Source: Hormiphora californensis
Taxonomy: Eukaryota > Animalia > Ctenophora
Length of the DNA stretch: 64,000 nucleotides
Direction of reading: 5' to 3'
Assembly: GCA_020137815.1 (NCBI GenBank)
Contig: CM035352.1
Span: 4,712,001-4,776,000 of the forward strand
Shown: positions 31,401 to 36,624 of the stretch, in pieces
How positions within the stretch are numbered: the first letter of the stretch is position 1
How the letters are laid out: each line of letters opens with the position of its first letter
Translations under genes and position numbers: made by a program
Notes under the pieces: generated by a model
What the model saw: only the letters and a program-made list of their open reading frames with translations
Told to the model about the DNA's origin: nothing
Database searches by the model: none

Positions 31401-34400
31401 TTAACAAAAATTCAAAAAACTACAGTTTGTATAAAATACTACCTGTCTTTCACAGGTAACCACGAGGTCCGAAGTATACAGGCAATGTTCACCTTTAAAG
31501 CGGAGTGTATGTCCAAGTTTGGACAGACCATGGGAATGAGGGTGTGGGAGGCAGTTAACAAGTGTTTTGATGTTCTTCCCCTTGCTGCCGTCATTGATGA
31601 CAAGGTATGTATTGGTCAGGAACCGACCGAAACAAGTAAACAACCAATCAGAACTCTGTATTTAGGTCACGTGACTGGTTATCAGCCAATCAGGGACCAG
31701 TATTTCCTGATTCGGTCGGTTCCTGGGTAGTATAGGTACTGCTAGAACCAGGAAATAATCTTTTTTAGGAATTGCAGTATAAATATGCACTGCCCTGTTT
31801 AATGCCACACTGCTTGTTGTTATGCAACATGTCAACACGTACCTAACTCTTGCCTTAGTCGACCCTATCTTTTTGTGTGCCTTTACAAATATAAAGGAGG
31901 GTTAGAACATAGCAACACCATGTCCAATCTCTCCCAGATATTTTGTGTTCACCATCCAATCTCCCCCAGATATTTTGTGTTCACCATCCAATCTCCCCCA
32001 GATATTTTGTGTTCACCATCCAATCTCCCCCAGATATTCTGTGTTCACCATCCAATCTCCCCCAGATATTCTGTGTTCACCATCCAATCTCCCCCAGATA
32101 TTTTGTGTTCACCATCCAATCTCCCCCAGATATTCTGTGTTCACCATCCAATCTCCCCCAGATATTCTGTGTTCACCACCCAATCTCCCCCAGATATTTT
32201 GTGTTCACCACCCAATCTCCCCCAGATATTTTGTGTTCACCATGTCCAATCTCCCCCAGATATTCTGTGTTCACCATCCAATCTCCCCCAGATATTCTGT
32301 GTTCACCATCCAATCTCTCCCAGATATTCTGTGTTCACCATCCAATCTCCCCCAGATATTCTGTGTTCACCATCCAATCTCCCCCAGATATTCTGTGTTC
32401 ACCATCCAATCTCCCCCAGATATTTTGTGTTCACCATCCAATCTCCCCCAGATATTCTGTGTTCACCATCCAATCTCCCCCAGATATTTTGTGTTCACCA
32501 TCCAATCTCCCCCAGATATTCTGTGTTCACCATCCAATCTCTCCCAGATATTCTGTGTTCACCATCCAATCTCCCCCAGATATTCTGTGTTCACCATCCA
32601 ATCTCTCCCAGATATTCTGTGTTCACCATCCAATCTCCCCCAGATATTCTGTGTTCACCATCCAATCTCCCCCAGATATTTTGTGTTCACCATCCAATCT
32701 CCCCCAGATATTCTGTGTTCACCATCCAATCTCCCCCAGATATTCTGTGTTCACCATCCATTCTCCCCCAGATATTCTGTGTTCACCATCCAATCTCCCC
32801 CAGATATTCTGTGTTCACCATCCAATCTCCCCCAGATATTCTGTGTTCACCATCCAATCTCCCCCAGATATTCTGTGTTCACCATCCAATCTCCCCCAGA
32901 TATTCTGTGTTCACCACCCAATCTCCCCCAGATATTCTGTGTTCACCATCCAATCTCCCCCAGATATTCTGTGTTCACCATCCAATCTCCCCCAGATATT
33001 CTGTGTTCACCATCCAATCTCCCCCAGATATTCTGTGTTCACCATCCAATCTCCCCCAGATATTCTGTGTTCACCATCCAATCTCCCCCAAATATTCTGT
33101 GTTCACCATCCAATCTCCCCCAGATATTCTGTGTTCACCATCCAATCTCTCCCAAATATTCTGTGTTCACCATCCAATCTCCCCCAGATATTCTGTGTTC
33201 ACCATCCAATCTCCCCCAGATATTCTGTGTTCACCATCCAATCTCCCCCAAATATTCTGTGTTCACCATCCAATCTCCCCCAGATATTCTGTGTTCACCA
33301 TCCAATCTCCCCCAGATATTCTGTGTTCACCATCCAATCTCCCCCAGATATTCTGTGTTCACCATCCAATCTCCCCCAGATATTTTGTGTTCACCATCCA
33401 ATCTCCCCCAAATATTCTGTGTTCACCATCCAATCTCCCCCAGATATTCTGTGTTCACCATCCAATCTCCCCCAGATATTGTGTGTTCACCATCCAATCT
33501 CCCCCAGATATTCTGTGTTCACCATCCAATCTCCCCCAGATATTCTGTGTTCACCATCCAATCTCCCCCAAATATTCTGTGTTCACCACCCAATCTCCCC
33601 CAGATATTCTGTGTTCACCATCCAATCTCTCCCAAATATTCTGTGTTCACCATCCAATCTCCCCCAGATATTCTGTGTTCACCATCCAATCTCCCCCAGA
33701 TATTCTGTGTTCACCATCCAATCTCCCCCAGATATTCTGTGTTCACCATCCAATCTCCCCCAGATATTCTGTGTTCACCATCCAATCTCCCCCAGATATT
33801 CTGTGTTCACCATCCAATCTCCCCCAGATATTCTGTGTTCACCATCCAATCTCCCCCAGATATTCTGTGTTCACCATCCAATCTCCCCCAGATATTTTGT
33901 GTTCACCATCCAATCTCCCCCAGATATTCTGTGTTCACCATCCAATCTCCCCCAAATATTCTGTGTTCACCATCCAATCTCCCCCAGATATTCTGTGTTC
34001 ACCATCCAATCTCCCCCAGATATTCTGTGTTCACCATCCAATCTCCCCCAAATATTCTGTGTTCACCATCCAATCTCCCCCAGATATTCTGTGTTCACCA
34101 TCCAATCTCCCCCAGATATTCTGTGTTCACCATCCAATCTCTCCCAGATATTCTGTGTTCACCATCCAATCTCTCCCAGATATTCTGTGTTCACCATCCA
34201 ATCTCCCCCAGATATTATGTGTTCACCATTCAATCTCCCCCAGATATTCTGTGTTCACCATCCAATCTCCCCCAGATATTCTGTGTTCACCATCCAATCT
34301 CCCCCAGATATTCTGTGTTCACCATCCAATCTCCCCCAGATATTCTGTGTTCACCATCCAATCTCCCCCAGATATTCTGTGTTCACCATCCAATCTCCCC

Positions 34401-36624
34401 CAGATATTTTGTCTTCACCATCCAATCTCCCCCAGATATTCTGTGTTCACCATCCAATCTCCCCCAGATATTCTGTGTTCACCATCCAATCTCTCCCAGA
34501 TATTTTGTGTTCACCATCCAATCTCCCCCAGATATTCTGTGTTCACCATCCAATCTCCCCCAGATATTCTGTGTTCACCATCCAATCTCTCCCAGATATT
34601 TTGTGTTCACCATCCAATCTCCCCCAAATATTTTGTGTTCACCATCCAATCTCCCCCAGATATTCTGTGTTCACCATCCAATCTCCCCCAGATATTCTGT
34701 GTTCACCATCCAATCTCCCCCAGATATTTTGTGTTCACCATCCAATCTCCCCCAGATATTCTGTGTTCACCATCCAATCTCTCCCAAATATTCTGTGTTC
34801 ACCATCCAATCTCCCCCAGATATTCTGTGTTCACCATCCAATCTCCCCCAGATATTCTGTGTTCACCATGTCCAATCTCCCCCAGATATTTTGTGTTCAC
34901 CATCCAATCTCCCCCAGATATTCTGTGTTCACCATCCAATCTCTCCCAGATATTCTGTGTTCACCATCCAATCTCCCCCAGATATTCTGTGTTCACCATC
35001 CAATCTCCCCCAGATATTATGTGTTCACCATCCAATCTCCCCCAGATATTCTGTGTTCACCATCCAATCTCCCCCAGATATTCTGTGTTCACCATCCAAT
35101 CTCCCCCAGATATTCTGTGTTCACCATCCAATCTCCCCCAGATATCTTGTGTTCACCATCCAATCTCTCCCAGATATTCTGTGTTCACCATCCAATCTCC
35201 CCCAGATATTCTGTGTTCACCATCCAATCTCCCCCAGATATTTTGTGTTCACCATCCAATCTCCCCCAGATATTTTGTGTACATGGGGGCATCCCATCTC
35301 CTGAGAACGGTGGCGGGTATCTGAGTGTATTTGAGGATATTCCTCACGACCTACCGGACCCTGAGAAAGAGTGCAGACTGGCATGGGAAGTTATGTGGTC
35401 AGATCCACTCAGGTAATAATGGACATATTAGACAGTGATCTGTTGTAAAATACCGGGTATATCACAAAATACACGGGAAATACACCCTCCCCCCGATTTC
35501 TAAACAACTCAACCTCTCCAGGGAAGACGAGCTAGACACGACAACGAAAGAGACGGTTAAGGATTCGGGCGGGTTTATAGCCAACCACCGCCGAGGAACA
35601 GCCTACCTGTTTTCCAGGGAGGCCCTGGAGAGTTTTCTAAAGAGGAAACAAACTCAGTCATGTGATTCGGGCTCATGAGGTTAAACAAGCCGGATTTCAG
35701 GTAAATTCACGTGATAACCAATTTAATAACTCCGTAGTGTGATAGACGATGTATATTTTTTGGCGCCAACTAGATCTGTGTGTACTGTCACCAATCCAAT
35801 TTGATAATCAAAACAAGGGCGGTGCCGCCAGACAGGATCTGTCAGTGTTAGAACATTGGTCTAACAGGACAAGATTGGGGGGGGGGGGGGGGGGGGTCCA
35901 GCCCTAAAAAAAGCTTAAGGTACCCTGATTTTGGTCGATAGCGTTTTTTATTTTAGCTTTTTTTAGCTTTTTTTAGCTTTTTTAGCCCTACTTTTTATGT
36001 TTTTTCAGCATTCATCTTGACACTTTTCCATTAAATTTTCATCCTTCCGGACGTCTATTGACTGCTTTTGTTCATTTCCTGCACATTTTTTACCATAATC
36101 TACCGTTTATGTCCATACATAGCAATTTCTGTATCCACCCCTACTGCCATTTTCTGGAGACATTTTTTCGATAAAAATATTATTCAAATTTGATAAAAAT
36201 AGTTTTAAAAAAGTTCAAAAAACGTTATAAAACGTTATAATAAAAGTTTAAAAAATTTGGCGTCAGCGGGATTCGAACCTATATGAATCCACTAAAAACT
36301 CAATTTTAGCTTTTTTTAGCTTTTTTAGCCTAAAAAAAGCTAAAAAAGCTAAATAAAGCTAAAAAAAGCTAAAAAAGCTAAAAAAAACTAAAAAAGCTAA
36401 AGGTACCCTGATTTTGGCCGTTAGTTTAGCTTTTTTTAGGGCTGAACCCCCCCCCCAAGATTGCTCCTAAATAACACCCACATATAATATATTCCCAGGT
36501 GCAACAGAACGGTAAACTGCTGACTGTCTTCTCCAGCTCGGGCTACTGTGGGGGGACAAACCAGGCGGCGTGCGTGCTGGCAGATCGGAACAAGATCAGG
36601 ACGATTAGGATCGACACTTCATAA
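25694..36624 (+). CDS. Multi-exon Ser/Thr protein phosphatase (PPP family) with N-terminal Nudix-like domain and EF-hands
   Basis: Nudix-like [31 protein letters not shown]-hands [15 protein letters not shown] and [17 protein letters not shown] motifs [37 protein letters not shown]. The exon phases I checked from the Nudix to the EF-hand exons are compatible; one +1 frameshift near 35648. Confidence 0.85.
31617..31725 (+). mobile_element. Second copy of the ~110-bp CAGGAACCGAC MITE
   Basis: Near reverse complement of 10028-10136. Confidence 0.85.
31918..35283 (+). repeat. Minisatellite, ~105 copies of a 32-bp unit CCATCCAATCTCCCCCAG|ATATTCTGTGTTCA spanning a 3' splice site
   Basis: Exon-start position after the first AG is 31938 and after the last AG is 35270: 3332 bp = 104 x 32 + two units longer by 2 bp. 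Confidence 0.97.
35878..36455. mobile_element. MITE with G/C-run termini
   Basis: TIRs (G)n-TCCAGCCCTAAAAAAAGCT / AGCTTTTTTTAGGGCTGAA-(C)n; CAAGATTG on both flanks; internal AGCTAAAAA repeats. Confidence 0.75.

Follow-up and report, generated by a model that had tools for sequence, protein, structure and literature searches.

How is the start of an exon found when the splice signal that marks it has been copied in tandem some 105 times? This question is raised by a 64,000-nucleotide stretch of the genome of the ctenophore Hormiphora californensis (assembly GCA_020137815.1, contig CM035352.1, positions 4,712,001 to 4,776,000 of the forward strand; hereafter the window), in which a 32-bp minisatellite abuts the catalytic exon of a gene encoding a calcineurin-like phosphatase. 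As the array is tandem, of minisatellite size and made of units that reach across an intron-exon boundary of the gene in which it lies, splice signal included, it is a "mirage" minisatellite. We consider it probable that a 32-bp duplication of this boundary, which a related species has in two copies, has grown to 105 copies here, and that the spliceosome uses the last copy, giving a normal phosphatase message.

The features that bear on this question are as follows, in window coordinates.

25694–36624 (+), gene for a protein with NUDIX, EF-hand and PPP (calcineurin-like) phosphatase domains, modeled with 18 coding exons from tblastn, an exon model and Pfam analysis of the ortholog.
31456–31604 (+), upstream exon GNHE...DDK, ending in phase 0, which matches LOC134812734 at 82% over the full exon length.
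31605–31610 (+), GTATGT, the 5′ splice site of the array-bearing intron, with the donor GT at 31605–06.
31918–35280 (+), 32-bp minisatellite of ~105 units, each consisting of the intron end including AG, 11 nt from the start of the exon and a junction.
31936–31937 (+), first AG, which retains the original intron context, is out of frame, leads to a stop at 35322–24 and lacks YTNAY at −45 to −10.
35268–35269 (+), last AG, the sole AG that gives the conserved DDK-IFCVHGG join.
35270–35412 (+), catalytic exon IFCVHGG...WSDPL, 143 nt, placed by alignment to the ortholog.
35644–35646 (+), a single additional A within a short run of A in the following exon (the second-last of the gene), which shifts the frame in the window only.

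Where does the catalytic exon begin? The host gene is the ortholog of Bolinopsis microptera LOC134812734 (tblastn of the ortholog protein covers 25694–36624), and our exon model, with 17 GT-AG introns, stays open as far as residue 760. Pfam analysis of the Bolinopsis ortholog finds PF00293, EF-hand families and PF00149; the database annotates this protein, in which NUDIX, EF-hand and PPP-phosphatase domains are joined, merely as "uncharacterized protein." The DDK-IFCVHGG junction can be read in the ortholog and in two spliced ctenophore contigs (L001 and L002) and, since it is obtainable from the last AG only, places the exon boundary there, as an earlier model-generated reading of the window (the preliminary description) had proposed. 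The two contigs come from metagenomes and represent other ctenophores, at ~70–83% nucleotide identity, and thus fix the junction rather than the AG used in Hormiphora. When proteins were searched with the upstream exon as query, two of three candidates matched, neither of them a transcript-derived protein of H. californensis. In PPP phosphatases, the HGG motif contributes its His as a ligand of the metal. In 28 genomic loci of other organisms an AG directly precedes IFCVHGG, and the position of this intron is old; an upstream copy of the junction is present in none of these 28 loci. Close relatives of the catalytic exon with the identical intron position occur in many other organisms.

For the array itself, Tandem Repeats Finder reports a period of 32 at 31923–35280, with 104.8 copies, 97% matches and a score of 6302, and a script counted 105 acceptor positions, whose exon starts run from 31938 to 35270, so the roughly 105 copies of the preliminary description are borne out. 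The dinucleotide is AG at 95 of these positions and AA at 10, again as described, and 102 of the 104 unit lengths are 32 nt (two are 34 nt). There are 16 unit types in irregular order along the array, and AG>AA is one of four recurrent unit variants. The proposed composition of the unit, 18 nt of intron plus 14 nt of exon, stands for the intron end with its AG; the exact exon match extends for 11 nt, after which the unit reads TCA and the true exon ACA. Likewise, the branch-like TTCAC with its A at −19, said to be in each unit, is found upstream of 102 of the 105 acceptor positions, and the first AG is without it. YTNAY at −45 to −10, which the first AG also lacks, is missing before five of the 16 other acceptors of the host gene.

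With the donor at 31605, as originally placed, the array-bearing intron measures 3,665 nt to the last AG and would measure 333 nt if it ended at the first. The other 16 introns of the gene span 59–913 nt (median ~190), and its internal exons 66–179 nt. Directly behind the donor, the intron stretch 31612–31730 (+) resembles a common ctenophore interspersed repeat.

What would the other acceptors yield? About one-third were thought to be in frame, and 30 of the 95 AGs do share the frame of the last acceptor, that is, 29 decoys and the last AG itself. Splicing to the first AG would produce a 3,475-nt exon that, as the preliminary description foresaw, runs out of frame to a stop; with the second-last AG the exon would measure 175 nt and the reading frame would meet that stop too. 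For the third-last AG the stop is at 35302–04, the fourth-last is open, and the nearest in-frame decoy gives a stop-free exon of 239 nt. The array has no stop in its three plus frames, as had been stated, compared with 35–37 stops in each minus frame. However, 33% of 20,000 shuffled circular units were likewise free of stops, and we therefore rejected the open plus frames as a meaningful signal. We also rejected the idea that selection has removed in-frame decoys through AG>AA, as five of the ten AG>AA units are in frame and this enrichment is not significant (p = 0.21).

Could the array have been generated by the assembly? We compared 35206–35870 with sequencing runs, as contigs, in four of 13 listed runs. 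One run (X5) is a second sample from a separate study with the same species label; two others (X7 and X11) are from a related species, here species B. The X5 unit pieces have depths of 8,833 and ~1,700 (1,728), compared with 371 for the exon contig, whose first 31-mer is precisely the one at which the exon diverges from the repeat (35251–35281). The two main unit types occur at a ratio of 5.1 in X5 and 5.3 in the window, and depth scaling gives an X5 array of ~37–41 units, a rough figure, as the unit could also lie elsewhere in that genome. In X11, a 292-nt contig of depth 33 begins in unique, intron-like sequence, crosses two acceptors and continues without gaps into the exon. A second X11 contig (depth 31) has the geometry expected of a one-acceptor allele, with 13 unmatched letters and its end where the exon, shifted by 32, would fall, and species B thus probably also carries an allele with a single acceptor. 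X7 has branched unit pieces, i.e., few copies. The array is therefore not the product of a single assembly: an artefact, a doubt raised in the preliminary description, is largely excluded by the array lying against the exon in the second sample. A duplication with one breakpoint is common to two species and has greatly expanded in one, and array length differs between alleles or individuals, from 105 units in the window and ~37–41 in X5 to a few in X7 and two, with a probable one, in X11.

If the junction is fixed by other ctenophores, which AG does Hormiphora use? A search of the sequencing runs listed none of RNA that contains the gene, and X13, presumably an RNA run, gave no contig at 35206–35870; neither blank says anything about expression. 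In the two exons downstream of the array, 19 of the 20 listed differences from species B (X7) are synonymous, compared with 23% expected (p = 9e-12), as are six of six differences from X5 (23% expected, p = 1e-4). These exons are thus under purifying selection, and the last AG is therefore likely to be used. The downstream exons can be translated in frame from two kinds of acceptor only, the last AG and the decoys that share its frame. Such a decoy would interrupt HGG, the metal-binding motif, and use of the last AG is the simplest reading.

How could the last AG be singled out? Its upstream context cannot do so, because 76 of the 104 other positions share the identical 20 nt upstream and the identical matrix score of 10.7. 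The acceptor matrix scores 10.5 at the first AG and 10.7 at the last, and first, internal and last acceptors together range from 10.5 to 11.9, within a leave-one-out range of −3.6 to 14.4 for the gene. RNA folding gave no preference for the last site (z = 0.5 for the last, −0.7 for the first and −2.3 for the array). Downstream, purine 6-mers number 0 per 100 nt in the array, 3.5 in the catalytic exon and 3.4 in all exons, and this context could distinguish the last AG. In scanning, the search for the next AG starts from a branch point already selected, and the choice falls earlier, when the branch point and pyrimidine tract are recognized. With nearly every unit carrying its own branch-like motif, the conflict with scanning that the preliminary description perceived is weaker than stated.

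Because the last AG differs from the decoys in what follows it, namely a 143-nt exon, a real donor and purine 6-mers, we favor exon definition, helped by exonic enhancers, as the way in which it might prevail. The original duplication may have arisen by slippage or unequal repair at 2–3 nt of microhomology (CA/ACA), and the array could then have grown by unequal crossing-over. Only the last AG has a donor 143 nt downstream, and behind it comes purine-rich exon sequence that could bind serine/arginine-rich (SR) proteins; behind each decoy, exon sequence gives way after 11 bases to C/T-rich repeat. Reed and Maniatis reportedly found in 1986 that sites before truncated exons are passed over. Leaky use of decoys would produce mostly messages with premature stops, which nonsense-mediated decay (NMD) would clear as noise.

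Several points weigh against use of the last AG and its normal output. The acceptor was assigned by comparing DNA, and the signature of purifying selection belongs to the lineage rather than to the 105-unit allele with its frameshift at 35644–46. The splice matrices were built from just 16–17 sites of the host gene, and contig depth is a poor measure of copy number. The pyrimidine run of the last site is predicted to pair with a G run in the exon. As the other introns are short, pairing of splice sites across the intron would favor the first AG, which lies 333 nt behind the donor and scores 10.5 versus 10.7 for the last. Nor can exon size by itself exclude the second-last AG, whose 175-nt exon has a length normal for the gene. 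Duplications of boundaries can also do harm, as a junction duplication in human FGG leads to aberrant splicing (PMC9052919), and early experiments with tandem sites conflicted (PMC1557585).

If decoy use rose with copy number, long alleles would make less normal message, through NMD, as well as enzymes with 32-residue inserts in the active site. We consider such a length-dependent dial or burden rather unlikely, although the decoys score like real acceptors and carry the branch-like motif, 29 of them are in frame (the nearest giving the stop-free exon described above), copy number varies widely between samples, and duplication of a donor in human FGG produces aberrant transcripts (PMC9052919). 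An insert that splits HGG would probably inactivate the enzyme, the open frame of the unit is matched by one-third of shuffles, and AG>AA shows no frame bias; the preliminary description's suggestion of a dial for NMD and isoform output finds no support in these data. The stronger proposal, that in an early-branching animal with short introns copy number sets phosphatase output as a heritable dial, with more decoys giving more NMD or more forms with a split active site, is about as unlikely. In a switch based on alternative splicing coupled to NMD, the alternative site would be conserved across species, but species B probably has a one-acceptor allele and the absence of an upstream junction copy from all 28 loci of other organisms argues against a conserved device.

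More doubtful still is that the 105-unit allele is null, killed by the array, by the one-base insertion at 35644–46 or by both, and survives in heterozygotes. The window sequence does contain a frameshift that is missing from the three DNA runs compared at this position (X5, X7 and X11), but X5 combines a long array with an intact frame in a single exon contig, and all six coding differences from X5 are synonymous. The extra base sits in an A run, where assembly errors are typical; as it is absent from all three runs, it probably reflects such an error, or else a null change private to this sequence. The true array could be far shorter than assembled, as the lower X5 estimate and the lack of a contig that spans the array might suggest; this we regard as very remote, given that 16 unit types in irregular order are not expected from a collapsed or looped consensus and that the ratio of unit types agrees with an independent sample, with tens of copies in any case. 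Remotest of all is stepwise removal of the array by re-splicing (recursive splicing), in which the first AG, near the donor and well scoring, would be used and the remainder then spliced out. Recursive splicing requires AG|GT, but a join to any of the units yields AG|AT, in which no GT is regenerated. Scored as donors, the two GTs within the unit reach −5 to −6, compared with 0.2 to 11.2 for the 17 real donors of the gene, and their use would leave seven or nine extra bases, so the re-splicing mechanism of the preliminary description finds no support.

Is selection of the last of many acceptors unusual? Purifying selection makes this part of the preliminary description a likely outcome, but it is not new: amphioxus mirages, tandem copies of intron-exon boundaries in Adh3, the globins BflGb6 and BflGb9, troponin C and PGBD5, are reported, by reverse transcription PCR, not to disturb splicing (PMC3087553, PMC3902484). 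These mirages resemble our array in that boundary copies contain AG or GT signals and vary in number between haplotypes, Adh3 has units of 10–72 bp and the BflGb6 mirage is on the acceptor side too; they differ in copy number, with six and three units in BflGb6 compared with 105 copies in a ctenophore host with short introns (PMC3087553, PMC3902484). Moreover, normal splicing was seen in amphioxus RNA, whereas here it is deduced from DNA. The 37-bp variable number tandem repeat in intron 7 of human F7, which has 5–9 donor sites whose identical pseudo-sites are functional but silent, has a similar unit size, spans an exon-intron boundary and uses only the site adjoining the full exon; however, that site is the first in transcription order, whereas here it would be the last (PMC1557585). 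Human CBS 844ins68 duplicates an intron-exon boundary exactly and still gives normal mRNA; it can be compared with the species B allele that has two acceptors, although it is a single 68-bp duplication rather than an array (PMC13282417). By contrast, boundary repeats can create alternative transcripts (PMC2812944), and these repeats and the FGG duplication, which lie at splice boundaries and alter splicing, with alternative transcripts or disease as the outcome, would be the model for a dial or burden (PMC9052919, PMC2812944). Our literature searches, including the accessible text of PMC8527503, found no case of a ctenophore mirage.

The type of element is thus already known, and the locus is a good and large example of it rather than a discovery or a demonstrated control switch. 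Nonetheless, it is apparently the first case noted in a ctenophore, and mirages may be a general animal phenomenon. The amphioxus Adh3 mirage is reportedly unstable in length in somatic cells. The two-acceptor allele and the probable one-acceptor allele in one run of species B, with a breakpoint shared with the 105-unit array, give a glimpse of the birth of an array, and the value of the locus lies in this natural series of 1, 2, ~40 and 105 copies. It is also a natural test of how the spliceosome chooses among 95 near-identical acceptors in a gene whose introns are otherwise short. If a dial did exist, the same alleles would constitute a dose series and a direct test of exon versus intron definition in ctenophores.

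Other parts of the window may contain similar arrangements. At 42599–42671 (−), the donor GTAGGT after ...FNDDIQG, in what is presumably a malic-enzyme-like gene, occurs in three copies in 24-bp units, and these donor units are followed at 41870–42589 (−) by a compound array with GTAGGT/GTACTT motifs; together they are a possible donor-side mirage. Another possible donor-side mirage is at 51615–51745 (+), where a 40-bp unit is present in 3.3 copies, each of which holds, behind a frame that opens with ATG (MDFETDSV...), a perfect donor-like GATG|GTAAGT. Elsewhere, two long open reading frames of 435 and 1,087 amino acids at 358–4823 (+) have motifs that we take to be those of a LINE-type retroelement, with endonuclease and reverse transcriptase. 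A stop-free frame of 737 amino acids at 19097–21310 (+) resembles a calcium-channel alpha-2-delta subunit. Several broken frames adjoin it at 22401–23615 (−), in a gene that we assume to be tubulin-glutamylase-like, and these breaks may be further one-base assembly errors.

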